Source of the DNA: Raillietiella orientalis | Lineage: Eukaryota | Direction: 5' to 3' | NCBI GenBank assembly: GCA_036172245.1 | Contig: JAYWIR010000002.1 | Location: 3,782,001 to 3,846,000 of the forward strand | DNA length: 64,000 nt | Shown here: positions 19,345 to 58,812 of the stretch, in pieces | How the letters are laid out: each line of letters begins with the position of its first letter | How positions within the stretch are numbered: the stretch's first letter is position 1 | The notes under the pieces: model-generated | What the model was told of the DNA's origin: nothing | The model's database searches: none | Seen by the model: the letters and a program-made list of their open reading frames with translations, nothing else | Position numbers and translations under genes: made by a program

Positions 19345-19690
19345 CTGGAGAGGTGTCATCAATCCACCAACTCCATGGTAGGAGATGAAAGGCCACCCCT
19401 GAGGGAGGGGACGACGTCTCCTTTGCATAACCAGAGGGGAACTAGCCATTCTTTGTTTCCGTTCCCTGGAGGGACTCTGGAGGTCGACTCCCAGCCCTGG
19501 GCACTCATTGGGGGCATCTGACTTGAACCGCCACCGGTGTCGCACCCGAATGTAGGCCAACCAGTGCCATCTTGTGGGAGGAACTCGAACCCACGGAGCA
19601 CCCATTTCTCTGGCGTTGATCCTTCCCCGAGTGGATTCGAGTCCATGACGCTTGGAGCCATACGCGGAGACCCCAGCAGCCACATGGCCT
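19345..19690 (-). mobile_element. SINE copy C (head, core and partial body; empty at the LINE target site)
   Basis: B-box-like GACTCGAATCC, core CAAGATGGCACTGGTTGGCC, and body aligning with 14100-14310. Confidence 0.75.
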
Positions 19691-20493: not shown

Positions 20494-20757
20494 TTTTTTT
20501 TTTATATATATATAAGTAACGTGGCAGGATCAAACGCCCTGCCACAGACCTGTATGTTTATTTTTATAATAAACGCCCTGGCATGACCGGATGTCAACCA
20601 GTGCTGCACCCGAATAGGCCAACCAGCGTCATCTTGTGGGGGGAACTCGAAACACATGACGCACCCCTCGTTCTCGGCGTCGATCCTTTCCCCGGCGGGA
20701 TTCGAAGTCGCAACTCTTTGGTACCACGTGCGGAGACTGAAGCCATACGGCCGCCAA
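20494..20757 (-). mobile_element. Chimeric SINE head + antisense LINE tail + (TA)n-A10 (copy D)
   Basis: SINE head and core at 20757-20598 joined to the LINE tail at 20597-20512 at the same junction as 56486/56487; ends in an A-run. Confidence 0.75.
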
Positions 20758-28436: not shown

Positions 28437-28650
28437 TTGAAGAACAAGAGAAGGAGAAAAAGAAAAGGACGAGAAGAAGACGAAGTAAAAGAAGAGAAGA
28501 GGAACAAGGAAAAAGAAGTAGAAGAAATGGATGTAGAAGGGATAGAATTAGAAGTAGAAGAAGAAGAAAAAATAAGTAGAAAAAGAGAAGAAGTATAAAT
28601 GGAAGAAGAAGGGGAGAAGAGGAGGAAGAAGCAAAAGAAGAAGAAAGAAA
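28437..28650. repeat. Purine-rich (GAA/GAG) low-complexity tract
   Basis: Directly visible; it produces spurious E/K-rich and S/F-rich ORFs. Confidence 0.85.
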
Positions 28651-31600
28651 TCACCGACATGCTTGCATCCACATGCTATCTTGCCCAAGGTGAATCACAG
28701 CTTCCACATGGGCAGTTCGGTTGCCTCCGCAGTCCACCCCCTCCTGATTGAGATGGACGGATTCCATCGGTTGTGCCGTGGGCATGTCTCGAACGGACCT
28801 GCTCCCGGTTTTCGGCGTCCTTCCCGCCGCCAGAGGGAGTCTTTTGGTAGTCGCAGCGTCCAGGGAGAAAAGGAGGGGAGGGGGTCAGCTTGGGTTTTTC
28901 GCACCGAAAGAACCTTCCTCCATGGGGCAGGGGCCTCCTCTTGGCGAGGCGGCGGCAGCGGCAGCTCTCCCTTCCAGCTCGCGAGAGGCTTCGCGTAGGG
29001 ACCGAAATCCCGCGGAGGGGGTGGGAGCAAGCCGCTGCCAACCCTCTTCTCCCCTCGGGAGACAAACTGGCGATCGAGGCGCGTGTGGGTGTCCCATGCG
29101 AAAAGATGGCGAAGGGTGCGGGCCTTTCGTGGCTCCTCGAGGAAACCACCGCACGCCCGCGGCCACTGCGCTTCCTTCCCAGGGGGCAACCTGCCGAGAC
29201 ACTGCGGGCTCCCGACGGCGGGGAAGAGCCGTTGGAGAGAGGGAGCGAGACAAGCGCTTCGGGCGCCTCAGTACCCCGAAGGAAAGGAGAAGGGGTGCCG
29301 AGTCTTCCAGCGCCCCCTCTGGTGGGAGGCCCTTCGCGTGCCTGGGGTTACCCACCCCTGCGGGGTGGAGAATGCGGACCGGAAGCGCCGTCGCTCGTCC
29401 TGCACCGGCGCGCCGCTTCCGGCGACGGGTCCGGAGCTCCCTCTCTTTACTGCAGGCAGGTGTGCCACCTAGACCTAGGGACGGAGGAGAAAGGTGCGAA
29501 TCCGGGAGCGTGCGGACTCCAAGCCAGCCCGGCAGGGGGAGGCGTGAGCCGAACTTATCCTCGGGGAGAGGGGACAAAGGGCACGCGAGCGACCCAGTTC
29601 CGGACTTTTGGGTCTCCGATCGCGCCCAGTCTGCTCCGCGAGGGCTCAGATCACGCAGGGGGGCGCCTAGGGCAGCCGGCGCGCCCGCTGCCCCTCGTTC
29701 TCGAAGCGGCGACAGGGAATGCTCGCGTTGAGGCAACAATGCCCGATACGTTTCCCCGACGACGGAGCGAAACCGGCGTCGTCGTGGGCAACCGCTGCAC
29801 ACGCACACGTAGCGGTCGAGTGCGCCAACGTGTGCGACAGTGTGGATGGCGCGCATGTGTGTACGCAGGACCTGTGGAGACACCGGCGCGTGATGGTGCA
29901 CGGCGACGGAAAATGCTGGCGCTCGCATCTGCCGACAAGTGCGGAGCGCACTGTTTCGCGCACCCAGCAGGGCAAAGGCGCTTAGCAGCTTCTTTCCATC
30001 CGAAGTGGAGGCGCATCTCCTCGGACTCCCTCTTCCTTCTCCTCCCTTCTCGGAACCTATGTGTCTGCAGGATGCGGTCCGCAGCCTGCAAAGTTCCTGC
30101 CAAAAAAGAGCTTGGGAAAACTCGAAAAGTTGGGAGGATCCTTTGAACGCTGTGTTCGTTCTATAAATAGCCGTGACACGGAAACATTTTTGATTAAGAA
30201 ATGGTTTTCAGATCATGGGAGATTCCCCGGAGAGCGTGCACCCACTAGGTAAGCCTCGTCTGATCATTCTCCTCCCAACACGTAAGCGTCGCTCCCTTGT
30301 TTTATTTTTATTTTTTTCCTATCGCATGGAAGAGGGAGCCCGGGACCCAAGGTTCCCCAAATGCTCGCGGAGGATTTCTCAGGATGCACGAAGGTTCCTT
30401 TTTTTTTTTTTTTTTTGTCGTCGTCCTCTGCCGCCTCTGAGCACAGCGGCAATCGATTTCCGCTTCTTCCTCGGCTACGCGCGGGAGCTTCCAGCCAAGA
30501 CAGCATGTCTGCAGGGATGCTCCGCAGCCTCACCACGGCGCCTGCCGAACCTGCGCTGAGCCTCAGGGAGTCGGGCGGGAGCGACCCATCGGCGTGTGTA
30601 GTCAACGGCGAGCCGCCGCAAAGAATCGACGACTGTGACGCAACGGATGCAGACAATCAGTGTGAGAAAGAGAAGAGGGCCGAGGGCGCGATGACATCCA
30701 GCTCGACATTAAAAATTAAAGGGACGACGTTGGGAGGTAGTGGAAGGCGAGCTGCTGTGGGTCTGGGAATGGGATCGACACTCAAAGAGAGATGAGATTT
30801 CGACAGTTGAGCAAAATTTGTATTTATTTTTTTTTTTTGGATGCTGTTTGCTAGACGGCTGGAAGAGGACGGCGCTGCGACGGTTCATCCGGTTTGCGAG
30901 AGTGGAGATTTCGAAGGGAAAATTCGTTTCTGTAACACAATCGTGGGGACCGGAACACAAAGTAGCACCGAGGAATGAAATCAGACATCAGTTTGATAGG
31001 CTCGAATTTCAATCAGTGCGTCCTTAGGAGCGAGGGGATTCCGCAACGTCTTGTTGCCTGTTTCCGTCCGCCCTACGCAGAGGAGGAAAAAAAAAAAAAG
31101 AGGAAAAGGTGTTTCTTTTCCTTTTTCATCCCAAGGAAGCAACCGATGTGTATACGTTAGCATGACCTTCTAGTGCTCCGATAAACATTCCCTTTTATTT
31201 TAGTCACAAAAAACCACTCGAATCTGAATCATCGTTGCAGTTCTTCGTTCGAAAATTTTTACGAGCTTTGCTTCTACAGGGGTCCTGGAAATGCAATCGG
31301 CCAGACGCAAATAAACAAACCGGAAAATAGATTTCAGAACAGTTGGCAACACTGCTTTGGAGGGCCGATTGCAAAACGTTTTCGGTTTCCACCATGCTTC
31401 ATTTCCCACCATCCGTTTACTTGCAGTGCAAACGACGTCTGGGCTTCTTTCGCTTCGTAGACTCTTCCGCTGCAAGCAAGAGGCTGAAGTGTCTATTCTC
31501 GTAGGGCAAAGGTGTTTGTGCTCAATCTTTTTCTGGAAGCGCTTAGTTTAATGAGTTCTCTGGGGGCTTTCTTCTTCTTCCCCGAAGAGGGTATGGCCGC

Positions 31601-37612: not shown

Positions 37613-40600
37613 TTCTGCAATAGCAGCTTAAAAATTGGATAAAAGAATTGAAATAAATTCGGAACAGCCACACATATGTTCTCTTGTGAAACTATTTTAA
37701 GCACATACTACTTTACAAACATGCAGAAGATAAACATAGCAACACACAAAAGGTGTCTGGCTAGTCTAATTTTCAAACAAACATGACGATCTAGCTTTGG
37801 AGACCAGCGACTGATCAGTTTGCACACAGAAGGCAACATTTTTAAAAGCTACCCTTCCTACATACTTTCAGAAAGAATGATGTTTACATATGCATGCAAT
37901 GTGTTCAATACTTCCTCTTTTGACTGAAAAGAAAACAACCAACTTTAATGGGGGGGGGGGAGAAGCTTGCATTTAATTAAAGGAAATGATCTCCCCAAAG
38001 AAAACAAATCAAGAATCATAAAAGATTTCGTATCAAAGTTCTACAAAGGAAACAAAAGTGAACCAAAGTGATCAAAAAAACAATTGCATGAAAAAGTGAT
38101 ACGCACAAATGCAAAAAAGTGAACATCTGAATCTACTTAAAACATGGAGGAGAAAACAGGATTGCGCCATTAATTATGTGATGTACAACTACTGAAGTTT
38201 GAATTTGACAAATGTCTTACATTTAATGGTCAAGGCACGCAATCATTTAAGAAACACACACAAAAAAAGAAAATCATGCACACTGAATGGACATATAAGA
38301 TCTATCGCTTGCATTTTAAGTCATCATTCTTGCTTAAATAGTGACAGGACTGTTTATTCAGAACAACGACAGTAGTGTCCAAATGCTGACAAAAAACAAC
38401 AGAACATCAGAACGAAAAAATGAAATCTACCAACAGATCTTCTTGAAATGAGTAAAAAATGTTCTAAATGAAAGTTATGAATGGTCACTGTTAATAATGA
38501 AAAGCAACCCTACACACTAGTGGCACAATAATTGATTCATGATGAATCAGCCATCATTTAGATATGAATGTGATGAATATTTTAAAAATATCAAGGAACC
38601 AGAAACTGTACCATATGTTTTTAAAACCATGTCAATATTAGATCATTAAAAATTGAAAATAACCCAATGAACTTGAAAGAAAAAAGAAAGTCAGTTTTCA
38701 GCCATTATTTATAATATATCAAGTACCATCATCAAAACAATAACATCTTTAATGATTTACAGTAGTTTGAAAAATAGGACATAACTCAAATTACTGTTTA
38801 GTCCACTTTAACTGCAAACACACACTCTAATATTAGTTTACAAGTTAACTTTTTTTCACGAACAACTTTCAGCTGATACAAAACAATATTTTCTTCAACC
38901 TTTATATTATTAGGAAGCAAATGGACACTTGTAAACTGTAAGGAAAAAGAGAAAAGGTGTTACATTTCGATTTTAAGATGGTGCAGGATTAAAAATTAAA
39001 ACTGGTTACTGGTTAAAAATTACAAAGTTCTGAAGGAACATGGTGTTTCATGTGATAGTGCATATTGGAACAGTTGTGCCTTCCAGAATTCAATGAATAT
39101 ACCATACCTACCAGATATTATGTACTAGAATTAAATTCATTAACTTATGTTATTAAGAGAACAATGCAAACTGCGCAGTTTTCTGGATCCAGTTTGAAAT
39201 TACAATTTTAACAACTAATTTGCATTTTGGTTTAATTTTATTTGAAGGCATTTTCATTAACTTGATGCAGATGCTGCAAAGTGGACATCAATTAAATGGA
39301 AAATTATCGCTTAAAATTTATGATCAGCTGTGATATTATGCGCTATTAATCAATTATACGAGCATAAATTACTATTACACGTATTGTTTACAAATATTTA
39401 CACCCCGACGGAATTTTTGCATTTCCATATTTAGAAGGAAACACTGACAACTGAGCACAACTGCTCAAACCTTCAGTTTGGATAAACATTTTGCAAATTT
39501 GGGGCACTCAAATTTTAAATGCATACTTTCATTTACATTTCTGTATACCAAAAATAACTGCAAATACTTCCCATGAGGAAGTATTTGCAGGATTTCCCAT
39601 GAGGAAAATGCAAATAACATTCCAACAAAAAATAAGAAAATTACTGACATATTACTAGGAACTCCAAACACCTGCAAAACAATTTTTACATATTTTGATG
39701 CTGAAACCTGAATAACTATTAATTATTTAGAACCAGTTTTCATAAACCTCCTAAGGTGGTTCCTGTTCTGCCAGGCTGACAAGATTACTAAAGATTAATG
39801 AAAAGTGGCGATGTTTACATTAAAGAACACGCATGTCATAAAGCATTTATTTTTCCAAACTTTTTGGTACACATACATTACTTCACCAGTCTTCAATAAC
39901 ATCTGATTAAATTCACTTAAACTGCAGTCTCCACGCTGTCATCTGTAATGTTATGAAGCTTACATGCACAAGGTAATATTTCTTAATTGAATTAACAGTG
40001 ATACTGGCAGTTTTAAAACAGCACACGATCTGCATTTTTAAAAAGAAAAACGTGCTTTCAAAGCTCATTGGGGTACAAAACTAATCAAATCCTTATACAT
40101 GTATAATGCACCATACACTAGTTTGTTAAATGTTTGCCAATTGCTAAATGCTTATAACACACTAATGGCATTGCGTATTCAAGAAAGCAAATTGCAACCA
40201 ACCTGAATCGAAATATTTACCATCCATTTTCTAAAACTTCATAAAAGTTACCTTCGAGGCATGCTAGCAACATGTCAAGGAATTAGATCCATATTATCGA
40301 CACAATAACATTATAGCCTAAGTACCGAATAGGGCATTTCAAATGGAGTAGACCGCACACGGAATTACTCTTTTCTTTAAATTTCGAGCATTCCTTCCCA
40401 ATGCTGGAAGCCAGTCTGTACGAAATTTTTATTGCCGGGTTTACGCTAGCTCTTTGAATTTTCCTTTTCTAAAAACCGATACTTAAATATTTACGAAGTT
40501 GTCTCCTTGGATAAAGCTAAGCGACGAAATGCTAAAGAAGATTCACTCTATTATTTAAATCCACTCAACTAATAAACGAAAAACAGACTGCTGTAAAAAC

Positions 40601-43600
40601 AAAAATATTAATATTTATTACAACAAAGTTCTGCTGTGGATCAACTAAGATCTTTTGCACAAGTCGCTCCCTGTAAATTGGAAAGTGTGTATGTTGATTA
40701 GATTAGAATATACAAATTAAAAAAAGAATTTTTTTTTTTTTTTTCTTTTGAGAATTACCAAAGTTTAAGAATTGTCTACTAATTTTAAAAGTAAAACTTT
40801 GCTCATTACAGAATTTCCGAGCCACAACTAAACAATTCATTCTGGAATACTCCAGAATTTTTTGCAAATATTCTGCATTAATCTCGGAAACGGATTTTCA
40901 CGCAGCAATACTGAATGCATCAACTTTTCCCATTTCGCACATTGTGGGTTAAGGGAGCACACATAAAATTAATGAATGCGTAGGGATGCGAATCAATCCA
41001 AGTTCAGATATCAAATATCTTTGTCTGCATATGTTTCTCATATTTATCCTCCTGAAAAACGCTTTTAGAAAATTACAGCGTAATCTAGTTAGCATTATTT
41101 CCTACCATGTTCCTCAGAATGCATGTCTTCATCATAATCTAAAAAATAATAAATTCATACTCCAAAAGTTTTTACAGTATATTTATTATGAAGATTTTCA
41201 TTTTTAATACTTCAAGCACTTCATATAACGAAGCAAAGTATGAAAACCGCCTGAATAATCCAGAAATCTTTCGAGATGATACTCCCCAAATAAATTATGG
41301 AAAGCACGTACTCGTACTACGCTGCTAACGATCAGCTTTCTCATTCAAAAAACAATTAACAGAGCTATACTTTGATCCATCTACATCTGTATGGTAATCT
41401 AAATTCTACTTATAGAAAATGCTTTTGTACTTTGATCACTTTTTGAATTTGTAATTTCCTTGGAAAGAATTGTTTCAGTGGAAATTCATGACGTATTCTA
41501 TTCCTGTATTCTATTCCTATTTTAGGTAACTTCCAATGTTCGAAACCAACAGAGCTAATGCGCCAAATTTAAAGGAAAAGATTTTGTTCATTTAAGGAAC
41601 TGAATTAGAAAATCCTTTGCTTTGCTATTATACACTTTTCATTTAAAGAGTTCAGTTTATAAAAGTTATATTAGTAATAGTAACGCTCTCGTATGTCTTT
41701 CATTTCAAATCATAGGAATTTTACTTCAAGATGGTCTCTAAGATCGATTTCAAGCATATAAAGGAAATTTTCCTAATTTCCTAATTTTCCTAAATGCATG
41801 AGTATGCTATACACATGCAATCAAGTGAGCCAATCAACTTCTCCATTTCGAATACATTAACATTGCAAGTGCAAGGGGAAATATTCAGCACACACACATG
41901 AAAATCACTTAAATTTGAGAAAAATATGGAAGATGTACCTAAGTTAGCTGTTTATTTTAACAGTATATATTTTCTTATTGCAATAAGGGTGAATACAGGA
42001 ATGTGAATACCTACTTGTATGTTTGCAGAATGGCTTAAAATTTCTAAATAAGTAAGAAGAAAAACAGTATCATCAAGAAAGCAATATAAGATTTTTTAAG
42101 TCTTAGCTGCATACTTTAATTCAAGTCTAACAGCATTACAGAAGGCGCTACTTCCAAGAAAAAGCTTTATAAAAAAGAGCATAAAAACAAAAGGCACACC
42201 AAACTAAAGAATTCAGAATAAAAATGTGATATCAGTTACCCAAAGGATTCTTTCGATAATTCAAATGCTGTGATTCGTGAAATAAACCATTTTTTTTCTT
42301 GCAAGCATGTTCGAAAATTCGCGAATCAACAAAGAAGCAGAGAAGAACTCATGATACTTGAATTCTCAAAACTCAAATCAATGATCTGCTTGCAGATTCG
42401 CCCTTGTCTTGAAGTGAACTTACTAATGGACTCAGCCAGGAGAATAAGTCCAAAGGGATATTAAGAAAACCTTGTGAAGTTTTAAACATGTTTACGGAAT
42501 ACAGCAAATAGAAGAAAATGTTTTCGTAGAAGAGGATTCTCAAAATGAACTAAGCTAGCAAGTGTTTATCATAAAACCCTAATATTCTCTATTATTTATT
42601 TTATAATTTTCTGCATTTACTTTGAAAGCTTAACTCAAAAAGTAACAAGAAAACTGTTCATTTTAAAAAACATGCATACAAATTATAGTTCGTGCAGATT
42701 TCGTGCAGACATTTAAAGCAACAATGTATCGAGTACAATATAAAACCAGAAAACGATTTCCAAAATGCGATTGAATGACAGCGTATTTTTTTCGCGTTTG
42801 TATCACATCCTTGTGTTTCTCTTCTCTTTTCTTCCCTCCAATTTTTTCTTTATTTGAGATCCTGTCAATCTTTTATCATTTCCTAATCATGAAGATTTCG
42901 TTTAAACTGATTTTAAAACTCCTTGCATCCTTTAAAAATTTATAAGTTTATATTCAGGAGTAGTGGTAAAAGTTCGTCCTGTTTTTGTCTCTATAGATTT
43001 GGAATTTGGATTGGATTTTGGATTTTATCCATAGTAAAGAGAACCCTAAATTAATATTTTATCGCTAAAGGTGTGTCTTTTTCCCTGTTTTCACAGTTTC
43101 TTTGACATCTGTTTGTTTCCCAACTTGGTACTCTGCTTGCTCATTGTGCATTCATTTATCTAGATAACTTGAGCAACTTACGTTTTAAAATTCTATAAAT
43201 GACTTTTGCATTAGTATTTTAAACTTCTTTTGAATATCACAATTTAATTTTAAGGCACTTTTTTCAAAACGTGTGTTCATAAACTAATGTTTTCAATTTT
43301 GATTATAGGACAAGTAATTCATATTACTGTGAGCAAATCTCCTAGATGCTGCTTGAATGAATTTTAACTTTTTTCCCTAGTCTTTACCACATATCATCCT
43401 ACTGCTGATACAGTTGTGCAAGCAAGGCTTTGTTTCTGAAGATTGCTAACAAGCTTTGAAATCCCCGAAGTAACCATTTTTCATTGAGAATTCTTGTCAA
43501 AGAAGTTCAATAAGCTAAATTAACCAAACAGCTGGTCACGTGCTCATTTTGTTGTTTAAAAAAAAAACAATATAAATTTACTTGTAACAATTGGGATAAC

Positions 43601-44615
43601 TTTCCCTTACAGGTTCATTCATACTAATACCTCAAAAGCTTCTTTCTATTTACAAGATTCTGAAACATTAGAAATCACCACAGTATCTATTTAAAATGTA
43701 GAATATGAAAATTCCAAAAAATTTTGCAACAGTGACGAAGTTTTATATACAATGAACACAAGTATTCCTACTGGAATCAAACCTTTCATTTTCCAAACAC
43801 GACACACTCTTACAGCGGTTGTCGACGGAAATCGTATTTATGTTCCACTATTGAGATTTTCGTTTCGGTGGCTTTTCAAACTTCTCTCGAGATTTCTATT
43901 CAAGTGAAAATTCTCATTTCTTGTTTCCTTTTTTATATTAGTGACTTCCCTTTAGATTCCTTTGTACTCTTGATAATTGTAAAATGGGTCTGTGGCCAAT
44001 ACTTGGCTATTTGGAGAACTCTAGCAAATGGTGTATTCGTGGATATTAACTTATAAATTAGCAGTGCAAACATTGAAGTGCATTCGTTTCTGCACAGATT
44101 AGACTGCTATGCTTTGACCCCCCAGTTATATATGTCTAATGTTCATCATGCTAGAATGTCTATATGAACATTATATGTTTTTCAATCATAACGATACCTA
44201 AAAACCGTGTTCGTTTGCTGATTTATGTTTATAATGTCGTAAACGGTAATTTCAAGTACTCCGCGGGTATTCAAAAATTAAAAAAAAATTCCACGAATGG
44301 AATTTCCATTTGCTTTCTGTTTATTCTGCATGAGTACTCTGATGTTTCCATGGATGAAACGGTACCAATGGTCGCTCTTTGATTATTTTAGAAATTCCAA
44401 AAAATTGGAAAAGACTAAAAAACTCAGTGTAAAATCCTTGCATTTGCTATAAATGCCTGTTTTATTTGATGAGATACTTTTTGTATATTTTTGATGTGAT
44501 CAAAGAATTCATTGCTCTTCGTGGCAGTACGCGCCGGGATCCTGCGAAACGACGGAGTTCCACTTGCACAAACTTAAGGAAAGTCTGCGCAAACTGCAGT
44601 TGAAGCCAAGTAGTA

Positions 44616-47459
44616 ATGGAAATGAATCGTCCAAATCATCTTGTGAATTGTACACTGGGTTCCTTAAAAAATACTGTCATAGATCATGTTATGGTGAATG
44701 TGCACGACAAGACTCTTACCATTGGGTCAATTATCGGTGATCTGTTATCCATGGTAAGTTTTCTTTGCCGAATTCGAATTCAACTGAAGCTCCAGAATTT
44801 GCAAATATCCATATTATTGATAATGCTTTCAATATACGAGGAATAGGAAGCAGCAGGAATTAATTGCCAATTTTTCGTAATTTTGAATATATCAATCAGT
44901 CTTGAAAGCAAAACCTTCGGTTTTTTAATTTTTCTTGTTAAATTGTGTTTACTCATTTTTCACTTTTTCAGGAATATATTTGGTAATTACATAAATGTAT
45001 TGATAGTGTCATGTGCTTATTTTCAGGGTGTGCATCTTTCATATTCAGATTTTACTTTTACTGTCAATGGGAAACTAGTACATGCCAACGATAATGTCGA
45101 GACGGGACAGATCATACGTATTTCCCCAAGACTTATTGGTGGTAAAGGAGGTACAATACTATTTTGGCCATTTTATTCGTTTCAAATTTCAATGTAATTT
45201 ATATGATTTTCATGACTGTGGACAGATTCACACACACATATGTGTACATGCATAGGTATTACATTTTCATTTCTGTTTATTTGCCAGAAGTTACTGTTTG
45301 TCACTTTTTGCTCTAACATGGAAGATGTTGAATACAAAAGTCATGTGAATTGATGATCTGCATGTTCTGATATGCCATCTGCACATCATTGTAGCTGTGG
45401 AATTGTCTGCATAATCTTGTATTTGTTTTAAACTAATGACATGAACATGTCATTTAAAATGTTGTTCTGTTACAATAGGTTCTTTGAATCATTATGATAA
45501 GCTTTCCAGTAAACTCTCCTAGATAATTCCTTGTTAGCAATGAATAGTTATGTATCATGCTTATCTTCATTGATTTGTAATATGAAAGAGTATCCTACAT
45601 ACTTGGACTTTGCTACCAAGTAAATGGTCCTAGAACTAATTGAAATCTCGGTAACCGTGGTCATTTTAAATTTTCTCACTCTTTGTAAACTTCATTTACC
45701 TCTATGTTAGATTTCTGTTTTTCATGTTGCTTTTCTTGATGAAAAAATCCTTAGCCTGTGTTGTCATTTTTTTGTACTGGAGTCTTATTCTGTTCTGTAA
45801 TTCAGTTTTTGTTTTTATGGAATTTTGCAGTTCTGTATTCTTAGATTTTCTACTAAATTTAGATTATGAATCCTTTGCAGTTTAGCATTTTTCTGGTCAT
45901 TGCATTCAGTTTTCCCTTTGAGTTGCTAGCTGCAAATTAAACATGTGATGTAAAGTTCTGTACCTTTAAGTATGATTGAAAGCAATATTTGAAATTGTTA
46001 ACACTTTGTTTAACCAGTAATTGTGTTATTTATAATGAGAAGACAATCTAGTCACATTCTGGTCTGTCTTGATGACTACCCATCAGTGAAATGCAGCATT
46101 TTGAAAAATCTAGTCCAAGAGTACTGTTACTAACTGTTGTCTTGTGCGAATTATATTGTGTACCATTCTGCATGAGACATGCCATTAAATTTCAATCAGA
46201 TATTAAAGTTTATGTACGGATGTGTAAAGGTTTGATATCTATTTGTTTTGTTCCTTGAATAAACCTTTGTACACTTCAAATGCAATGTTTGTTACTTTGA
46301 ATTAATCAGTTAAGTGCTTACTGCTAGCTTGGAGGTATTTGAAAGCAATAACTTATGATCTGGGAAAGTACTTGTCCAAATTTATAAGTGTTATGGTCAT
46401 TAGAGTATTGCTATTAAGAGTGTTAACATGATGTGACTGTTTTTGATTTGCCAATCACGGCCATAGTTTTAGGAAGCTTATTTTGCGTTTTTCTAATAAA
46501 GTCATTATTTAGAAATGAGTTTGAGAAATGTGTTTTTTAAAAATAAATTCAAAACATTTATGCTTGTATCATTGCATGCTTCAGTATCAGAGCATCTATA
46601 AGTCTAGTGATAGATGCTGTCATCTGTGCAAATAAGCAGTTTTGTTGCAAGATACAGATGTTGCAAGTTCAAATGCTTTCTCAGAAATGCAGAAAAAATG
46701 GTTTTAGGTTTTGGTTCCATGCTTCGAGCAATTGGTGCTCAGATAGAAAAAACAACCAACAGAGAAGCTTGCAGAGATTTGAGTGGAAGGAGACTACGTG
46801 ACATAAATGAAGAAAAAAGGTATTGTACAAGTATTCTGCATCACTATCTAGGTGTTTAAACATCATACTAGATTGAAAAAATGGTTAGCCAAGCAATCAG
46901 AAAGAGAGAAAGAAAGTGAAACAAGAAAACGTAAAAAATTGGAAAAATTAAAGCAGTTGCCAAAACATAGCTACTCAGACCCAGATTTCAACAGAATTCG
47001 CTCTGATATGTGTGAAAGCATTTTTGATGCTGTAAATGAAGGTATGCTAGTGTTCAGAGAGCTAATACAAGTCACATTAAATGTTTAAGGAGCAAAAGCA
47101 TGTTCTTCGCAAATGTCAGAGGATTCTAATTCCATAAAACGCAAACATCCAGAAGATCAGCAAACTAACAGCAAGAAGTACTGTTTGTGGTAAGTCCAAT
47201 GAACAGAAAATGGCATGGTTTTAGGTTGGATGTCAATGAAGATATATCCAGTAATGATACCTCAAGTGGCAGCAGCAGTGAAGATGAAAAAAACGAGAAT
47301 GCTGAATGTTCTGATGAACATTTAAGGTATCTGTATTTTACCCATGATTTGCAGCTAGTTTGTGTTAACAGTGTGAGTGCGGACCACATAGATGATGATG
47401 GTTTATGTGGTGATGTTGAACTGCAGAAACAAAGTACTTCACTCCATGCATCTGTTTAG
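44616..47459 (+). CDS. SDE2: SDE2 (ubiquitin-fold splicing/replication-stress regulator); exons 44616-44753, 45027-45150, 46708-46819, 46872-47041, 47090-47189, 47225-47326, 47372-47459
   Basis: UBL domain ending [51 protein letters not shown], the diagnostic SDE2 cleavage motif and domain. Confidence 0.95.
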
Positions 47460-48626
47460 TGTTCCATGCTTGAAGGAATACTGCTACTTAGCCAGTACAT
47501 GAGCAATGGTTGTAACAAAGCAAAGAAGACTAGCGCATACAAGCACTTGCTACTGTAAGTTTCACCTCGTGAAGGCTGGAGGCGAATTCTGAAGGATCGA
47601 ACCTGAAATAATAAAATAGAAGTTCTGTGTTTAAATATAGCTCTATATTTCTGCTTACCAGAAAAAAGGCACATGAACTTCCAAAGTATAATAGGGCAAC
47701 GAAATAGCCCAAGAGTCCAAAAAATACCTCTGCTATGAGCATGATGATCATCCTACAAGAGCTGAAATTCTAGTTCCCATTTTGATTTTCCTTACCCCAC
47801 ATATTTGTATGAACAGAAAGCAACCAGATCAAGTATGGATATGCTAGCATTCATACTTTGCAGCCACAGAATGCATTGCATAAGTAACACCTCCAAAACT
47901 AACCATGCAAGCGTTGAGCTGGCTTTGATTCCCAACAGTTCCACATCAAACCTGCCATAACAGCGCATCCTGTTGCTGGTGATCTTAATCATTTTGTGTA
48001 CCTGTTTGATAAGCCAAGGACGATTCCTAAGAGTAACACGAACGTGATAAGAGCCATCATAGGAATATAAAGATCAGCAGCATTCACATCAATACGAGGG
48101 GGCAAAGGTCCATCTACAGAATGTTTTAACGACCAATCCTAAAAGACAAAATGTAAATAAAGTGTCCACTTAACTGAATAAATGCATACAGAGTGAGCAA
48201 AAGGAAAGATCAACAGCTGCAACTTTTTGAATACGTAGCCAGTATTTACAGCAAAGTAACGTTTCAAGTCAAAGACGTGTTGCTTCACAACTTCTGATGA
48301 CTGACCAAAGACTTGTTGTGATGTTATCCTTCCTGCTTGCAGTAGTGTCTCTTTCATTGCCTCTCTCATGGGGTCTCCCAACCCAGGAGCTTGCGACCCT
48401 ATTCAAATAGCTATCATATTAGTTACAAGTTACACTTACAAACATTTGATGCCAACTGCTGTTCAGGTTGATTTAAAGCGTAATTGGGGTAATTTGCACC
48501 CTGAGAAGTGAAAGAAGATGCATGATTATAATAAGGGGGAGAACTAAAACCAGGTGGAGATTCTAATTGTGAGGCAAACATAGGAGAAGCTTGTTGTCTC
48601 CAAGGATTCCTTCCTTGACGAGACAT
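47456..48626 (-). CDS. YIF1: YIF1 (Yip1-interacting factor; ER-Golgi membrane protein), 6 exons
   Basis: LKRYFAVNTGYVFKKLQLLIFPFAHS, PPRIDVNAADLYIPMMALITFVLL, LDLVAFCSYKYVGMI and QPLLMYWL; short GT-AG introns. Confidence 0.95.
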
Positions 48627-48720
48627 TATTCGATATATCGATTAGCAACTGCTAGCCATATTCTAATGAAGGAGATATTTTATTATGTTTGCAAGAAAAA
48701 CAATCCTCCCACACCCTGCC

Positions 48721-51700
48721 TTATTTGAGGCTTTGCTGAAAGAGATATTCTGCCTAAGATTAATGGCATTTATTTACTAAAATCCCTGCATACTCACCAA
48801 AAAGTCTATTGGGTCCTCAGGACGCACCTGGGATACTTCTAAAAGTCCTGGCACCAATGTAGGAACAACATGCTTCATTAGGTACGAACGCACTGGCAAA
48901 CTTCTCAGTTCCAGCAAGTCTTGCTCTTCCTGTTCTAGTTGTTTTATAAAAGCTGTCTACATACGCAACTATCTTCCTTCACTAAAAGGAGATTGCTAAC
49001 CCATTCAGTAACTCTCTGTTGCTGCTGTTCTTTTTCCTTCAACAAAACTTCTTTCATTAATGCTTCTTGTGCTTCCTTTATTCGTGCTTTTTCTTCCATT
49101 TCACGTAACTCAAGTTGCAACAACAGTTCAGAAGAAGGTCCTAATGTTTTTATAAACCTAATATCTTCTTGGTTAAATTTACCATAATTGCGAGGAGGAC
49201 CAAGTTTATTCAGAACATATTGCAATATATGATTCAGTTCAATTGAGTCTTGAGCCACATTTACATGGTGAATAGGTACTTCATTCTCCTCAAAGAAATT
49301 CAGGACATTAATTGCCGCACCATTGGTTCTATTTCCATGTGTTACTTGGTGAAGTAGATCATGACACTAACCTATACTTGCTGAGACGATTCAAAAAAAC
49401 TTCCTCTCCATATTTCTCATATCCCAAAAGGGCTAACTGATCTTCTGGAATGTTAATTACACGATGAATCAAGAATTCATCATCAGCTTCCAGTGATATG
49501 ACCAATTCTATAATCCAAGTATTTGTTATCTATTTCAGGAAGCCATACCTGGCATTGGTTTATATACAGAATCTTCTTCTGTGGGGGCTTCAAATTCTGC
49601 TACTTCCCCAAGGAAAAATTCAGCCTGCTCTACAGAATAAGGGTACCCATCCAAGACGTAACCCTGATTCTGGTATGGGGTAGACACCAAACGTTCTTGC
49701 ATAACACTGGGAGGAAGCAACTTTCTTTTCAGTGGTATTTTAACCCAAATACCTAGACAACACTTCATCATCTTCCACATCTTCCGCATAACTAAGTTGC
49801 TGGATAGCTTCCGGTAAACTCCCATCTTTACTTTCATTGTCTCCCCTGTTCAATCGCTTTAGACTGTTAGATTTCCGTTTTTTGAATACTTGCATTGAAA
49901 TAGTAGTAGATAGGGCTTTAATTTCAGTTTGTAGTTCTTCTAAACTGATATAATGGATGCCATATAATTCAGACAACTGTTTGCTTAGTGTGGTCTTTCC
50001 AGAAGCAGGAGGGCCTAACACACAAATTTTCACAGGCTAAACAATTAAAAAACAATATGTCCATCTTACATGCAAGTTCCTTTCCTTTCTGTATTCATTT
50101 ACTAAGAGTGCCATGTTGTCCTCCATACCTGAATGACAATGCCATTTCCAGTGCAAATTATCAGATATATACTGAGATTCCAGTAGCAAATCAACTTGCA
50201 GCATCGCCAATTCAGTTTCCTAATACTTCACATGATAAACACTAATGAAAATGAAATACCTTTAATTCACTTAAAAACAATAAATTCTCCTGAGGAACCT
50301 TATGAATGTGACCTGTTCCCAGATTCTTACTGATAGCCTGCAAAGGAGGTGCAGTCAGGAAATAACATTTTGCATACACATACTTGAACAATGGATAGTT
50401 GTGTACAGTTTCCTTCATCACAAAGAAGCATATATGATTTGTTTGGTTGCTGTTCCATTATAGTTAGAAGGGCACTACTGATATCCCAAACATGAACAGC
50501 TGGCAATATATTCTGACCTTCACCAAAAACTTCAAGCTGATCAGCATTATTCCATGCTTGTTTAAACCAAAAATGGAAAATACCCTCTTCCTGACCATAG
50601 GGTATCCCAGCTGCGACCACATAAGTTTTCAGTTTTTTTTTATTCTATAAAAAAAATGTTACAAAAAGCAATGGGGCAGTACAAATTTACTTGTACACCA
50701 GCCTTTGTTACTTGTTTTTCCAGAGCAATGTGTTCTTTAAATAGAGGGTGACACTTTCTCCTGAGATAATCTTCATCTATGAGAGGAAGACCAGCATCTT
50801 CTTGCTGAAAGTAGCCAATCAATTTTTTTGAATTGACTTCAAATGTCTCACTTACAGTATCTAATGGTTGAGTCTTAGCCCAAGTCATGATTGTGGATAA
50901 AAGGATAAAAGTAGGAGGATAGGGCATGGATTCCAAAGAATTAATTAAAGCTATTAAATTTTAGTGAAAAGAATGGTGTAGCTTTTATTTAAAGGTACTA
51001 AAAAAACAATACGCTAAATTGTTATACCTTTGAGTACATTTGATGCTTCCTCAATTTGGGATGTATCTTCTAGAATATTATAAACAATATAGCGATTTTT
51101 TATTACATCATTCAAGAAATGTTCATCATTGGGGTCTAAAATGCTGTTTATGTAAGGTGGAGTTGGAAACTGAAAGCATGTGTGTATAATTAACTTCTCT
51201 TTATCTAAGTTTTAGATCATTCAATGCACTTGAACAACATGGTAGTATCCTGGCTCATGAATAGCACTTGACAAACAAACAAAAGCAAATAGATATTTTT
51301 ATTAAAAAATCATAATACGCAGTCATTAAACAATAGTTCCTCCTACTGAATTGATGAAGTAAGTGAACTACATGTGGGTTTTGACCTACTGACAAACAAT
51401 ATGGTAAATTTATTGCATAGAGAATACTTGTAATCAATTAAAAGTAGTATTCCATCAATAAAGAACTGACATCTTAATTAGTTTTTTAAATTACCATTGT
51501 GGTTTTGCTGGTTCCTTGTATTTTGTAAAAGGCTTTCTCATAATCGTCATTGCTGATTTCCTCCTCATCCAAGTCCATATGCATACCAACAGGGCATTTT
51601 GAAATAAACTGAATAACACAGTAACATAAATTCATTTGATTGCGGTACACATTGGCTTAAAATGGGTTAAACACTCAAATCTTTAAATGCAAAACCACAC

Positions 51701-52036
51701 GTAGTGGACTCTTCATTTACACTGACTCATTTTTTTTTTTTTTTTTGGCGGAGTTCTGCCACAATTCTATTGAATTTTCGAACACGAAGGCGCTACTGAA
51801 CACTCATATGATCCGCATTTACATCCACACTTGCAACACGAATTTTCACACGGGCACGGCATCAACTGAAAACATCGACACAATTCTCGGATCGCGATTC
51901 ATCTCCTGCGACTCTTTCCGGAAAGCTTCGTGATTGTGGAGCCAAACGATTCGTTTCACAGAACGAAAAAGGACACCTTTGCAACGTTTCTTCCCACGTA
52001 GGAATCCACACCATTGCAAAAGATGGTCAGCTCCAT
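48721..52036 (-). CDS. AK7: Adenylate kinase 7 (ciliary/flagellar), multi-exon; first exon 52036-51977, stop at 48721
   Basis: MELTIFCNGVDSYVGRNVAK|FISKCPVG; FILLSTIMTWAKT; DYLRRKCHPLFKEH; YVVAAGIPYG; P-loop KICVLGPPASGKT; QGYVLDGYP; C-terminal Dpy-30 motif PVRSYLMKHVVPTL...RPEDPIDFLAEYLF. This is the AK7 architecture. Confidence 0.95.
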
Positions 52037-52656
52037 TATAAGGCCACGTAAACTCCCCGGTTGAATTCAGCTCGGGAACAGTGTGGACAAATTTTTTCAA
52101 GAATTCGGTAAGGTTGCCACTTCTTGCAAAGCGGCCCGTGGATTCAACCGGCAAATTTCTTTTCCGCTCTTCATGATGGTGAGTTCTCTTTGGGAAAAAA
52201 AGCAGTCATCAGCCGGAGCTCGAAAGAAAAAAAAAAATGCGAAGCGTTGGCACGAATGTGAGTTCGTGATAAATCGAATCCAGTCAATTTCACAAGTACT
52301 TTTTATTTGCTGAGGCATGCGACTTTCAGTTCAGACGAAGATGAAGCCTGCGTTGACCGGGAAAGCTGCTTTCACAGGAATGCAAACAGGAATGCATGCA
52401 TCTTCATACAGTCTTCTTCTCTCCCTTTGTTTGTTGTGCAAAAAGGTGCTCTTTGGTTGTAAGACGCATTGCTGAATTTTCAGCTATCACGGGTGCAAAG
52501 ACAACGTGAAGTCTCAGGTAGCAGGCGAATGCAGCAAAGGGGTCGGGAATATCGAAAGCTGTGCTTGGAGAGTCCTTTAAAAGGAAAATGTCATCAACAA
52601 GGATGATTACCATTCACGAGCTATGAGATCGAATGATGAAAGACGAGTTGGAAGGT

Positions 52657-54024
52657 TTGTGACCCGGATTTGACGGGGCACTTATTATTAAAATTTTTAT
52701 AAAAATTGTATCATAAATTCATTGATATTGATATCGTGGTAGAACACTTGGTTCTACCACGCGTGGAAGACTTGCCATAAACCGATACAAAGACCGGTGA
52801 GGTCCTCTCTGTTGGCATTAGGGGAGGGAATACCAGGAAAAAAAGAAACAAAAAGTTAACAAAAAGGGAGGGAAATGTTTTTCGGGGAGGAGAGGGCAGG
52901 GATGGGATCACCGGTCTCCTGGAGTGGTCCTCTGCATCCTGTTACGGATGCTGACGAGTGCTGAACGGATGTTCCAGAGTCGGGCCATCGGGCGGTGTTC
53001 TTCATGAAGATTTCCACCCAGTGGATGGCATCCCTGATGTTTTGGCCTCTTCTCTTCGCGCTCCACCTTGCCACGATTCCGCGTACACAGAGGCGGTGGG
53101 TAGGGCGTCACGCAAGAAGAGGCACTGTTTTTAGGGTCGGCTCCTAGGATTTTGAGGATGGACGAGAGTGGATCCCAAAGTGCACAAAGAACGACAGTCT
53201 ATTATCAGATGGGGAAAGGATTCCCTTCCGCTGCACTCTGCGCAATGGCCATCCACACTACTCCGTGTCCAATGAGAGAGATATGCTCTGCATGGGATTC
53301 CCCAATTCAACAACAGCAACACCGTCTCTTGCCATTTCAGAGGGAGGGTGCCACTGTCCGAACACGCTGGGGGCCACTTCACCTCCTCCGGAGGTATTTC
53401 GAGTGTGGTCTTGCCCCAGCGTTAGAAGTCCTTTAGACGGGACAGTCGGGGTCGCAGCATCCGCTAGCTAGCGAGTTGTCCACGCCTTCAAAAGTTTTTT
53501 CCTGCCTCCAATGAGGAAGGACACTTCCCACTTTGCCGGTTCGTTGCTGTCCCTAGCGTTCCTGAGGGAGGGCAGCACTGGAGCAAGAGGGGTAAACGAA
53601 GCCCACAGCAGCTTGCGTGGGTTGTTGAGGATCTCCTGCAGGGGTTGTCGAGCGTTCCTCCCTTTCCGGAGGCAGGTGTATTCCGCCTCGCTCGAGCCGT
53701 CGATCTTTCCCAATGAGGAAACTGACTCCTGAAGCCAGGCAGTGCAGTTCGCGGGGAGGCAGGAGATCCAGGTGTTCTCCTGCACCAGGATCTGGCGCAG
53801 CTGATGGTCACAATGCCTCGGGCTGTGGTCGTAGGCCACGAGGATGGAAGTGAATCCTTCGCAGCCGGTCGCTCTTGTGGCGAGGAGGCGTGCAGGTTCT
53901 CACCATGGCGTTGTCCACAGCTTCGCCGCAAGGGCGAGTTTTCGAATTTGGAGCTGTCGCTCCAGGCGCTCCACGTGAGGAGGCCCAGTCCATCGTCCCT
54001 GCGTGGAGCGCTCAAGTCTTTTGA
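52657..54024 (-). mobile_element. 5'-truncated L1/Tx1-like LINE (1368 bp) with a perfect 14-bp TSD
   Basis: ACGAGTTGGAAGGT at 52643-52656 and 54025-54038; zinc knuckle HWTRSSVDGHCAECSGRESFPHLIIDC; 11-bp hairpin 52735-52761; GC-rich within AT-rich flanks. Confidence 0.92.
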
Positions 54025-56304
54025 ACGAGTTGGAAGGTAGTGTAAGACTTCATTTGCTATAAAGTTAGAATCTCTGTTATTTCGACACTGCAAATAGCAG
54101 GCATTGTATTGGGTATGAAAAAAATTATAACATTGGAAATATCTAAAAAGGGACTTACCTCAATACAATGAGCGGAATTCGCATATTCGATGATCTATTG
54201 CTTATCTCACTGTAAGTTTTCTTTCCTCGAATTAAATTTAAATTTCACCATCTCATTTAATAAAGTTGTTAATCATTACCGAACAAGAATATATTTAAAA
54301 GATAAATAAGCCGCAATACTTATTCATATTCACCATCACCGAGACGGAATATTACATGTTTTCATGATAATGTTTACAGCTCGCTCTTGAACATCCAAAA
54401 ATGGGTATACTGTTTACATTCATTCACCATTCCAGTGACGACTTGGCTGGAGCTTTTCACTATTTTAAATCAAAGTTCATATCGAGTTCTTTAGTTGAGC
54501 TCAGACTCGAACACACTTCTAGATAAAGGGGCTGTATAAAACAAAAAGCAAACTGTTTGGTCACTCAGCTATTGTGAAATTCCATGACTTCGTTGCAGAA
54601 AGACGCCTCCTTTTTTATTGGACATGCCCGCAATCCTTGCCCAGAACAGTGTTTGGAAAAAGAAACTTGTCATGAAAATCATTCGAGGAAGAAGAGAATT
54701 CACGTGTTGCGGGAATATTTATTATAATGAATGAACAGAGACTATTGTGTCCAGATAAACGGAAATGTTGCATATTGATATTCGCAGAAAGAGGTGTACC
54801 AACTGCGATTGGTGAGTTGAAATATTTCTCTGGTAATTCGAACTGCACAATCCCACATCATCAGAAGAGGAAATCTGAGTACGCAATTGACCTTTTAAAA
54901 CATGTCTTTTCATTCTCTAGGAAAAGTAAGTGCACAATGCTGACTCTCCTTGAGGAGCAGATGAACCCAGGGGAATACACTTATTTGGAAAAGGAAGCGG
55001 AAGACAGTAGTGTTCTTTGACAGAGAGAGAGTGGGGAGAAGTTTCCTCCTCTATGGACCTGAGTATCCCATTTGATAATATTGCTCATGGGAACAGTTTT
55101 TCTTCAGCCTCAGAGATCATGGAGACGTCCAGAAGCACCACGATCTGGAATGCAAAAAGCGCATCTGGAAAATTGGGAGTATCCTTTCTCCTCCACTTTC
55201 GGCGAACCGATTCCCACGCAAAGGAAGGAGTGCATTGAAAGAGAATGAAATTCTTACCAGCTTCCAGACGACTTCATCACAGGGCAACCCGAACGTTCTG
55301 CTCTCGAGATCGTCTGCCCCGAGGGCAGCTCTGTAAAAAAATTCCTTTCCTCCGATTTGCACGCCTTCAGGGCAGCTGGATCTCTGCCTTCCAAGCTCAG
55401 CTTCCTCATACCAAAAATGCATCACGCCTCGGATTTCTTTTTGGTTGGGAGGAGGCTCTCCTGATCAATCTAGCTGTTCAACCCTTTGCCAGCTGAGGAG
55501 TGGTGCTCCGAGCGTTTCTTTCTCAATCTCTCCCTCCTCTCCTCGGATGGATCCGCAGCAGACTTCCGACCTCTGGGGGGAGCCCTCTCGCACCCTCAGA
55601 GTGCAATTTTCTCGCCTTCCTTCCCACAGAGTGGATCCCTCTGTCCATTCTCGATAATCCAGCAGAGAGAGGAACAGACTCCTACCTCCGGAGCTTTCCT
55701 GGATTAATTAGGGAGTCGTTACGGGGTTGTCCTCCAACAGGGTTACATTGCGTGAGGTCGAATGATGAGCTGCTGGACCAACCTACAAGGCGCTGCGCTC
55801 CTCTTCGAGCTGCTGAGTAGGGATGAGGACCTCGGCTTGGAGGAGCAAGGGGGGGAAGAATTTTTCTTTTGTCCCTCCCCTCTCCATCTCTCGAGGACAC
55901 GGAGCTCCAGCAAGATGCAACTAGAGGTTCCCCTCCGTAGGTTGGTCCGAAGGTACGCGCAACCCCGGCAACCCCGAACGCCCTCGGCGGCAGGGTGACG
56001 GAGGGAGCGCCAGGTTCCACACAGCCGCTTCCCCTCCGAAGAGGGTCCGGAACGCCCTCCCCAGCTCGGCCAGTCGCGGATCGGGCACACGCTCACAGAA
56101 TCGCAATCGTACATCTGCTCGCACTGTACCGTGCGGTTCACGAAACCCAAGTACGGCGAGAAATTCCGCTCCGATTGAAAGGAAACGAGGAGCGCGTGGC
56201 GGTCCTCATCCCCAGTCTTTCCTTTCCCCGTCCCTTTCTTCCTCTCGTCTGCCGTTCCTCCCTCCCTCCCTCTGGAGCCTCTTCTGCAGGGAGGTCTCTC
56301 TCCC

Positions 56305-57940
56305 GCGTCGGAGGTCTCCCTGCGGCTGTGGCTTGCCAGGCGTCGCAGGTTCGAATCCCGCCCCATGGAAGAGTCGACGTCAAAGAGATGGGAGGTGCGT
56401 CGTGGGTTTCGAGTTCCTCCAGCATGCTGTTCATATCACTATTCCAAGATGACGCTGGTTGGCCTATTCGGGTAAGGTGGCACTGATTGACATCCGGTCA
56501 CGCCGGGAGTTTATTTACAAAATGAACATACACGCCTGTGGCAGGACGTTTGATTCTGCCACGTTACTTATAACTACGAGAAGGAACCTGCCGGGAGCTG
56601 GCACGCAGGCCAGCGGGTTCGCCTCGGCAGCACAGGGGAAGTAGAGACAAACAAAAACATAAAATAAAAAATATATAGTCAAAAAATGGGGGGTTAGGAA
56701 GGGATCACCGGGTGCTGGAGAATGTCCTCTGCATCCTTGTAAGGATGCCAGAAAGTTCTTCATGCTGTTCTGTTACTGTTCCAGGACGCTAAAGGTCCAC
56801 TTCATCTCCTCCGGAGGTATGCTCCCTTATGTGCAATTCCTTGGGGTAGGACACCCGGGTTCTCAGTTGTCCGTCACCTTCCGAGTTGCCCGTGCCCCCA
56901 GAAGTTTTGTCTTCGCTGCTATGCATCATTTCCTACCATTGGCCTAAGATGATAGGAATTTCTTCGGGCTCTTTCCCTGCTCACCTCATGAAGAGGACAG
57001 CAAAATAGATGGCGTCCCTGTCGTTGTGGCCTCTGGCGTTGCTCCATGCAGCCACGATACCGTACGTGGGTGAGGGCTGTGGGAACCCTGTTATTCGGCA
57101 TGGGTCCAGAAAACCTCTCGAGAAGTCAACTGGAGTTGCAGTTCCATTCGCTACAGCATCAGGAGGACTAGACCTAGGGGGCGGCATTGGCGGAAGCCGA
57201 AAACCCCTGTTGAGAGGCCGGGATTGGAAGCCGACCCTCCGGGCTCTTTCCAGGAGTCGAGGAGCACCTCGACGTTCCCCAATATGGTTGCGAAAATGGA
57301 GCTGTTACCTCTCCCTCGGGGGAGATCCTCCATCGCGTGCCATGGAGCTTGTGGCTCGATGTCTCTCCAGAGCGTGAAGAAGCGCGTTGCTCTTTTCGGG
57401 GAGCGGTCCTTCAGAAAAATTGGGAAACACCCCTTCGGAGTTCTCTTCAGAAGAGGGAACAAGGATCGCCCTTATTGAGGGTGCCCTCCGGAGAAGCAAT
57501 GAGGAGTGGGTGCCTCCGTAGAGAATAAGGAAGCGGTTCTCCTTCGGGTTCCTTTCGAAGACAACCAGGAGGAGGGTTCACCTTCGGGACTCCCTACCGA
57601 GCGTAAGAGAAACGGACTCCTTCCTCCTCCCTTCTTCCTTCCCCCTCCTCCTGTGAGTCGGAACCTTATTGGACTCATACGGCGGTCCTCTACAGGGGTA
57701 CCTGCTACAACTTGAAGAGTTACACGCACCCTTGGGTGGCTTGGACGAACAGTGTTAAAGAGTTTCGTAAGCCGCTAGGCAACCGACGGTTCTCGAGGTA
57801 CTTAAGGAACAAACAACACAAAAAAAAGAAAACCGGAAAAACAGAAGGAAAAAAAAGAAAATCCCCAAACGTGCTTCAAATCTGGACCGCGGAATCCCTA
57901 AGCAACTGCTCCAATAAAATGCCATCCAACAACAACAAAA
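56305..57940 (+). mobile_element. SINE copy B, split by an antisense LINE (SINE parts 56305-56486 and 57180-57940)
   Basis: Perfect B box GGTTCGAATCC near 56348, then the core. The body resumes at 57180 colinear with copy A and ends CAACAACAACAAAA. Confidence 0.8.
56487..57179 (-). mobile_element. 5'-truncated LINE nested in SINE B
   Basis: HPYKDAEDILQHPVIPS*, hairpin 56538-56562, AATAAA and terminal CCGGCGTGACCGGATGTCAA; degenerate TSD GGTGGCACTGA/GGCGGCATTGG. Confidence 0.8.
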
Positions 57941-58812
57941 TCCTCCAACTTGGTCAATACCGACGTGGATTGACATGGGCAACCAGCTGGACCCGATAAA
58001 ATTCTTGGGCCAGTTGGAAGATAGAGTACGAATAACACACGAATCTGCTCGACAGCTTCGGTGCTTCTTGTTTCGGAGTTCTGAACATTTTTTACCCGTG
58101 GGGAAAGGCTTGCCTGCGTCTGACTACTGTTTCCTCTGTGGGCTGCATCCTCGAACCTCTTCCCCGCAAATCCAGCGGTGGACTCCTCACCGTTTGCGGA
58201 CAAAGCTCTTCAGAGAAGACGAAGTAGGAACGTGATTTCACGATACGAGTCCAGATAACTCGAGATAACTGTTTGCAAAATTCTCCCTTCCTCCTTCCTG
58301 ACATATCCTTTATTTTGATTTTATTTTTTCTTGAACTGCCTCGTCATCGATCAGCACTCGCCAAAAATGATGTTAACCTCCCATCCATGGCAAATCAGCA
58401 GCGGGAATGCTGGGAACAAGCGTAGATTTCTTTGAAGACGGTAACGTCAAGTTCTTTAGAGAAACTGATACCCTGCATGTGTATGGAAATGTTTCCTGTC
58501 GTCCCCACCCGATGTCTCTCTGCTGCTTCTTTACGTGCCGCTGCAAGCGCTGAATGTGTGAAGTGTAAGAAGCGACTGCTTCGACGGCTGGTGGAAAGAT
58601 ACTTTGTTTCTCATGTGCCGAATTTATTTGTGATGTTCGCTCTTCTCAAACCAACCTGTACTGAACGTCGGAGGATCTTGTCCGGTTCATGTTGGTGCGT
58701 TCCCACTGCTGACCTTTGCGCTGGAGCCTTCTTTCTTCCGATTGTGCTTTGTTCCAGCATCAAGGGCTGAAGATCTGGTTGCCCCAATTCCATTCCCACT
58801 ACTGTGTTTTTG

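Follow-up and report, generated by a model that had tools for sequence, protein, structure and literature searches.

Known targets of LINEs include rRNA, snRNA and tRNA genes, microsatellites and DNA transposons, and site-specific LINEs, which are also of interest as models for programmable insertion, are thought to persist by way of harmless multicopy DNA. In R1/R2-type LINEs, co-transcribed target sequence helps to fix the 3′ junction. Integration of Dictyostelium TRE and yeast Ty elements follows a distance window rather than one nucleotide, and chimeric retrocopies made by reverse transcriptase (RT) template switching, such as U6-L1 chimeras, are also known. The closest described systems are Tx1-clade LINEs that target other transposons: in PMC4494074, Tx1L inserts into Tx1D (piggyBac), Tx1-Mar into Mariner-N4_AMi, and Tx1-8_Crp and Tx1-4_AMi into LTR elements. 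The same paper mentions R1/R2-type site-specific LINEs of rRNA genes and, as a working criterion, counts a LINE as target-specific when over 20% of its flanks are of one sequence type; PMC4640811 places target-specific families mainly in early-branched, Tx1 and R1 groups. Pol III genes are targeted by Dictyostelium TRE non-LTR elements and by yeast Ty elements (PMC5006619 and PMC5911963). Our literature search, from whose scope most subscription journals fell out, found no description of a SINE as a LINE target.

Within the 64-kb stretch of DNA analysed here (the window), a polyadenylation-signal-bearing, L1/Tx1-like LINE family left six 5′-truncated copies. One of them, 693 bp long, integrated by target-primed reverse transcription into a SINE-like element (copy B), in antisense orientation, just past a conserved core and with an 11-nt target-site duplication (TSD); a second is joined to another SINE-like element (copy D) at the same nucleotide. 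As in the Tx1-clade targeters of PMC4494074, the LINE occupies a defined position within a second mobile element that is non-autonomous, specificity varies between related LINE families, and the C-terminus of ORF2 bears a CCHC-like motif. Unlike those systems, the putative target is a Pol III-type SINE, two of six copies are at the site, and the family is known from fragments that lack RT and an APE-type endonuclease. The nucleotide-exact 3′ junction and the multicopy target are also reminiscent of R1/R2-type LINEs, with read-through annealing as one possible mechanism, but the target here is a dispersed repeat instead of a gene array and the C-terminus looks L1/Tx1-like. Integration at a set distance from the B box, as described for TRE and Ty (PMC5006619 and PMC5911963), has a counterpart in a junction that lies ~125 nt downstream of a B-box-like motif; in contrast to the TRE/Ty windows, one exact nucleotide is used here, next to a putative Pol III-type SINE.

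The window is metazoan DNA, as judged from a sodium/calcium exchanger (SLC8A/NCX-like) gene whose C-terminal half is represented by seven exon matches at 486-12941 on the plus strand. These are the last seven exon matches of the gene, all within the first 13 kb (486-581, 4711-4860, 6756-6908, 7482-7598, 9917-10099, 12496-12666 and 12723-12941; protein similarity), with 50-82% identity to proteins from crustaceans, fish and flatworms; the top identities (82%) are to decapod crustacean proteins, with similar scores for fish and flatworm proteins. G+C content is ~60%, except in a 14-kb AT-rich block (31-39% G+C) at 38000-52000, and a degenerate (GAA)n microsatellite of ~200 nt occupies 28439-28645. 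The window contains 17 A/T homopolymer runs of at least 10 nt, spread over its whole length (e.g., 1150-1164, 2447-2466, 10309-10324, 18211-18225 and 30399-30416). Other retrocopies of the poly(A) type may have left these runs as their tails; self-BLAST around them found no repeat family. Ten long ORFs of the window had no match in Pfam and are likely spurious, with the high G+C as the likely cause.

Four SINE-like copies (A, B, C and D), which cover ~4% of the window, have in common a conserved 42-nt core and a head in which a T-arm/B-box-like GCGGGTTCGAATCCCGC is seen. A and B additionally carry a body of ~750 nt plus an A-rich/(CAA)n tail, giving an element of ~950 nt, long for a SINE, and since their bodies are ~60% identical, the SINE copies are old. 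Copy A (13496-14468, minus strand; nhmmer and alignment) begins ~550 nt past the last exchanger coding match (12941). It is uninterrupted and represents the empty target site: the earlier note had described it as colinear with B across the junction, which the profile search and the alignment confirmed. Its candidate 10-nt TSD, GC(C/T)TCTAAAA, matches at 9/10 positions, with ~0.2 such matches expected by chance, and is not significant. Copy C had been counted as uninterrupted as well, and this reading failed: although empty at the B/D site, C comprises just the first ~450 nt (19255-19702, minus strand; nhmmer) and is followed by a co-oriented LINE fragment, H (18494-19238, minus strand; nhmmer E = 8.1e-28, profile positions 9-721). 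H meets the truncated body of C with its own truncated 5′ end, and its 3′ end lies in non-SINE DNA. Copy C thus does not serve as an intact reference and represents either a SINE-LINE chimera or a nested insertion that was damaged; the C/H architecture (18494-19702, minus strand) is what a switch of RT from a LINE to a SINE RNA template would produce. The best TSD match around C/H (11/14) is not significant. Of the four SINE copies, A is the one with no LINE fragment in contact; B, C and D each adjoin one, and each in its own arrangement.

The label of tRNA-SINE, given in the same note, could not be verified. ARAGORN predicted no tRNA in the whole window; Rfam gave no tRNA at the gathering score, nor did the three heads scanned at E ≤ 10 (those of A, C and D) yield any. 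No tRNA model matches, and just the T-arm/B-box-like GGTTCGAATCCCGCC is visible. Decay of old copies could hide the rest of a tRNA-like head.

Copy B spans 56305-57940 on the plus strand. Its 5′ part (56305-56486; nhmmer with the four-copy head profile, E = 2.7e-41, and alignment) consists of the head with the motif just mentioned, followed by the conserved core CAAGATGACGCTGGTTGGCC. A 22-nt segment unique to this copy lies at the outer edge of the core (56424-56445) and could be a plain indel, a recombination scar or a priming scar. The SINE breaks off after GGTGGCACTGA at 56486, the junction reading TTCGGGTAAGGTGGCACTGA|TTGACATCCGG at 56486/56487, and resumes with GGCGGCATTGG at 57180; the 3′ part, with the body and the A-rich/(CAA)n tail, extends to 57940 and is colinear with copy A (57180-57940; nhmmer with the body profile, E = 1.3e-216, high by construction). 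Both flanking 11-mers (56476-56486 and 57180-57190, plus strand) map to the same 11 nt of copy A, GGCGGCACAGG at 14308-14298, and are 8/11 identical to each other. In local alignment, the left part of B falls on A 14339-14301 and the right part starts at A 14308 and runs on; if the three terminal bases are included, 11 nt of SINE stand on both sides of the insert, which marks them as a target-site duplication. The interruption of B by an antisense LINE, its resumption at 57180 and the 8/11 TSD, all proposed earlier, were borne out by this alignment to copy A.

The insert in B (56487-57179, minus strand) is a 5′-truncated, 693-bp LINE fragment, antisense to the SINE, with a 3′UTR (~210 nt, with AATAAA 23 nt from the end and a conserved hairpin) and decayed coding sequence of the ORF2 C-terminus. 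Its score against the profile of copies F, G and B (nhmmer E = 2.5e-149) arises partly by construction, B being one of the three profile sequences; independent support comes from tblastn, in which F and G peptides match up to 57061. Profile searches placed six copies of ~88, 250, 693, 745, 820 and 850 nt in the window, with one common 3′ terminus (CCGGRTGTSAAA in element sense) and varying 5′ truncation. Besides the fragments in B and D and fragment H, these are E (7153-7400, minus strand; ~250 nt with an A7 tail), F (8806-9628, minus strand) and G (52656-53503, minus strand), all three at non-SINE sites, with E and F antisense within introns of the exchanger gene. AATAAA stands 23-24 nt before the LINE end in B and D, and the A tails are short (2-7 nt). 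No TSD was found for E, F or H, and G has one weak candidate (13/16).

Coding remnants type the family weakly. A peptide like HPGKDAEDVLQIPVVHS recurs, as decayed coding sequence upstream of the 3′UTR, in four of the six copies (F, E, B and G). CX2CX7HX4C motifs are present in F (9299-9421) and G (53188-53349), for which the top Pfam match, zf-RVT, stays below the curated cut-off of 27.5 bits (E = 0.014 and 16.5 bits for F; E = 0.037 and 15.1 bits for G). Among Atlas clusters, one with 44% zf-RVT members ranked second (score 0.94). A C-terminal CCHC motif of ORF2 also occurs in L1 and other clades; we take the combination seen here, CCHC with a W..W..R-type tail, to resemble L1/Tx1 rather than the restriction-like type. 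Pfam found no domain in the LINE B fragment or the frames of copy B, and neither RVT_1 nor Exo_endo_phos matched in stop-masked frames of 56300-58000 (six frames) or of 8800-13400 and 52700-56300 (minus strand). LINE homology stops ~850 nt from the 3′ end, so that every copy in the window is 5′-truncated; the absence of RT concerns the window copies and may not extend to the family. Searches with the C-terminal fragment gave no match by phmmer among 1.84 billion proteins and no chain in the PDB, and none of 760 candidates scored in a profile search for longer proteins. The term LINE thus holds as far as the common 3′ end, the variable 5′ truncation and the TSD around B are concerned, whereas an RT or endonuclease was not found in the frames scanned, and the insert family is best described as a 5′-truncated LINE, weakly typed by its apparently L1/Tx1-like C-terminus.

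A hairpin sits in the 3′UTR of the family, ~50-80 nt before the LINE terminus (stretches 56530-56575 in B, 20515-20560 in D, 7195-7235 in E, 8845-8885 in F and 52735-52770 in G). Its pairing is retained although the stems differ in sequence: B and D have GUGGCAGG/CCUGCCAC, E has GUAGGGAC/GUCCCUAC, F has a G-U-rich stem and G has GUGGUAGAAC/GUUCUACCAC. It is present in single-sequence MFE folds of four of the six copies and was not recovered by RNAalifold, with one copy out of register. Beside the terminus, all four predicted pairs of a CCGG..CCGG mini-stem are standard in five of six copies, with two pairs broken in one or two copies.

The second junction lies in copy D, a SINE-like head and core (20598-20758, minus strand; nhmmer E = 2.9e-45, and alignment) that ends at the same column as the left part of B. 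The same junction, GCAGCACTGG|TTGACATCCGG at 20598/20597, had been noticed before and stands: on the minus strand it reads TTCGGGTGCAGCACTGG|TTGACATCCGG, and in the alignment the SINE column and the first LINE base both coincide with those of B. Joined to D is a LINE 3′ terminal fragment of ~88 nt (20510-20597, plus strand; profile search), which is identical to the LINE part of B at 75 of 86 aligned bases. Directly past this fragment, T10 and then (AT)n follow on the plus strand (20494-20509), equivalent to (TA)n A10 in SINE sense, and beyond it lies unrelated DNA. The SINE does not resume: no SINE body was found to the left of D by profile search or by similarity search at word size 7. We also considered the left flank of D as a diverged SINE body or LINE and rejected this, as no similarity was seen at word size 7. 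No TSD was found around the insert or around D as a retrocopy. By our own arithmetic from 17 runs in 64 kb, chance adjacency of an A10-type run to D has a probability of ~0.002-0.004, and the run may have been the poly(A) tail of a composite transcript that was retrocopied, or it may be what a target deletion left of D's own A-rich SINE tail.

A comparison of B and D bears on whether the two junctions arose independently. In the four-way alignment, identity of the SINE heads upstream of the core is 64%, and in pairwise alignments with four gap penalties, counting each gap event once, the heads reach 62-69% and the LINE parts 87-89% (Fisher P = 5.6e-5 to 8e-4). Both LINE parts fall into one young subfamily. 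CpG decay was examined as a cause of the head divergence and rejected, since the gap persists at non-CpG columns (heads 62-66%, LINE 90%; P = 5e-5 to 5e-4). The difference is not significant for transversions alone (P = 0.10), nor in a very gap-permissive pairwise alignment from B box to core with gaps ignored (82% vs 87%; P = 0.37). Head identity between B and D is the lowest among the six SINE pairs, and the parsimony-informative sites (BD|AC 2, BA|DC 8, BC|DA 2) give no B+D clade. In the 13 nt beside the junction, B and D differ by a 3-nt indel and three mismatches, and the 5′ truncation points of the LINE parts are unlike (693 nt in B, ~88 nt in D). The core by the junction is identical at 36 of the 39 positions aligned out of 42 nt, a value that is not distinctive, as D-A and D-C reach 33/39. 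High identity between B and D forms one block (56445-56572; 86.8% over 129 nt), rising from ~64% to ~90% at the B-only 22-nt segment; core and LINE are both highly identical, a pattern that a recombination tract would also give. The flanks of D have no similarity to those of B, and D was rejected on this ground as a segmental duplicate of, or 3′ transduction from, the B locus. The junction thus stands on two different SINE backgrounds, which implies that integration took place twice at one base, or once and was followed by recombination or template switching in the core. Of the earlier expectation that each junction copy would have its own truncation point and its own TSD, the first part agrees with the data, but D lacks both a TSD and the distal SINE.

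On the first of these readings, which is the narrow favourite, a closely related LINE copy would have inserted separately into D, a SINE copy that diverged long ago, with nucleotide and orientation matching those in B, because the young LINE subfamily prefers a site at the edge of the SINE core. Site-preferring, independent integration in B and D is, on the sequence evidence, quite possible though short of probable. The endonuclease may recognise the core boundary (..TTCGGGT..GCACTGR|T). Alternatively, a LINE copy residing in a SINE may give rise to read-through RNA with antisense SINE sequence, which would anneal to nicked SINE DNA and fix the junction; for R1-type elements, annealing of read-through target sequence has been proposed to act in this way. 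D would have lost its distal SINE during integration, through a deletion of target DNA as far as the A-rich tail of the SINE itself, unless D is instead an A-tailed retrocopy of a SINE-LINE composite. By our own arithmetic, two insertions at one base and in one orientation of a ~950-bp element amount to a coincidence of ~1 in 1900, on top of the ~4% SINE coverage; the coincidence of the junctions is real, and chance does not explain it. Across the family, LINE 3′ flanks are SINE in two of six copies, at one SINE position (2/2 for the young B/D subfamily; n = 2), while the remaining four 3′ ends lie in unrelated DNA (two exchanger introns and two intergenic sites), which limits any site preference to the young B/D subfamily. 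No shared motif was seen at the nick among the six insertion sites. The earlier claim that the LINE uses the SINE as a preferred landing site is therefore supported in part, by identical junctions on diverged heads, but tempered by the small number of cases, by the four 3′ ends elsewhere and by the lack of a TSD around D.

Motif scans of other sequence collections added no further junction. A metagenome scan with the SINE core motif returned 61 loci, none of which matches the SINE-body or LINE profiles; two of them (L017 and L059) match the head profile in the seed stretch only (E = 6e-4 and 8e-4), and all 61 are read as chance matches. The LINE-terminus motif had no match in viral contigs and 17 in prokaryote genomes, the latter taken as chance from their record titles, without a profile check.

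The second reading is that of one integration that then spread by descent, a B-like composite whose junction was carried to a second SINE background without any target preference; we regard it as a serious possibility, if a somewhat improbable one. Two routes are conceivable: a SINE-promoted transcript could read into the antisense LINE, become A-tailed and be retrocopied to give D, or copy-choice template switching or gene conversion in the core could place the core and LINE as a module behind another head. The structure of D, with its intact SINE 5′ end, ~88 nt of LINE and (TA)n A10 but neither a SINE TSD nor distal SINE, fits such a history, as do the start of the high-identity block at the core edge, beside the B-specific indel, and the location of four of six LINE 3′ ends outside SINEs. 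This genome does form SINE-LINE chimeras of a different type, as copy C with H demonstrates (5′ SINE and 3′ LINE, co-oriented). This join resembles the chimeras made by template switching, and a mosaic origin of the D head would need the same process; B differs from them in having a TSD on both sides of a LINE inside a SINE, which template switching does not produce. If head, core and LINE had been inherited together, however, the heads should not be so much more diverged than the LINE parts, and B and D should form a clade, so that an extra recombination step is needed. Nor was a TSD found flanking D as a retrocopy, TTTT runs in the composite at 56905 and 57393 (SINE sense) would stop Pol III early, and the dissimilar flanks argue against both segmental duplication and 3′ transduction from B.

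A third explanation, in which the LINE subfamily has ~40 nt of antisense SINE core fixed to its 3′ end through 3′ transduction, so that B and D are two insertions with the junction internal to the element, appears very unlikely. It would account for a B-D core about as similar as the LINE part and for the position of the extra segment of B exactly at the outer edge of the core. Against it, the SINE head runs on in register past the core in both B and D, the TSD of B lies at the LINE/core boundary rather than outside the core, and the core is conserved in all pairs of copies, those of D with A and C included. A chance match of two unrelated insertions is scarcely credible, and so is an error of assembly or alignment: nothing specific speaks for either beyond the fact that the window comes from one assembly, the ~1 in 1900 estimate counts against coincidence, and loci with different flanks and 13% divergence are no collapsed or duplicated assembly segment.

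The observation is thus real, and the reading as site preference, which 64 kb cannot decide, is plausible but unproven. A broader proposal, which we put forward as doubtful, is that the young LINE subfamily homes to one nucleotide at the core edge of a Pol III-type SINE, through its endonuclease or through read-through annealing, while the RT of the same family also handles SINE RNA, as the C/H chimera and the A-rich tail of the SINE suggest; the two would then form a two-way nested parasite system. Should the junction instead be common to B and D by descent, the locus would represent ordinary nested and chimeric repeats, and would serve as a caution that identical junctions of one transposable element in another need a copy-by-copy phylogeny before targeting is claimed. 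If the site preference is true, a SINE-targeting LINE would add dispersed Pol III retroposons to the known targets and offer a natural case of one retroelement policing another, and if the two-way system is true, the driver would both mobilise and disrupt its own dependent element.
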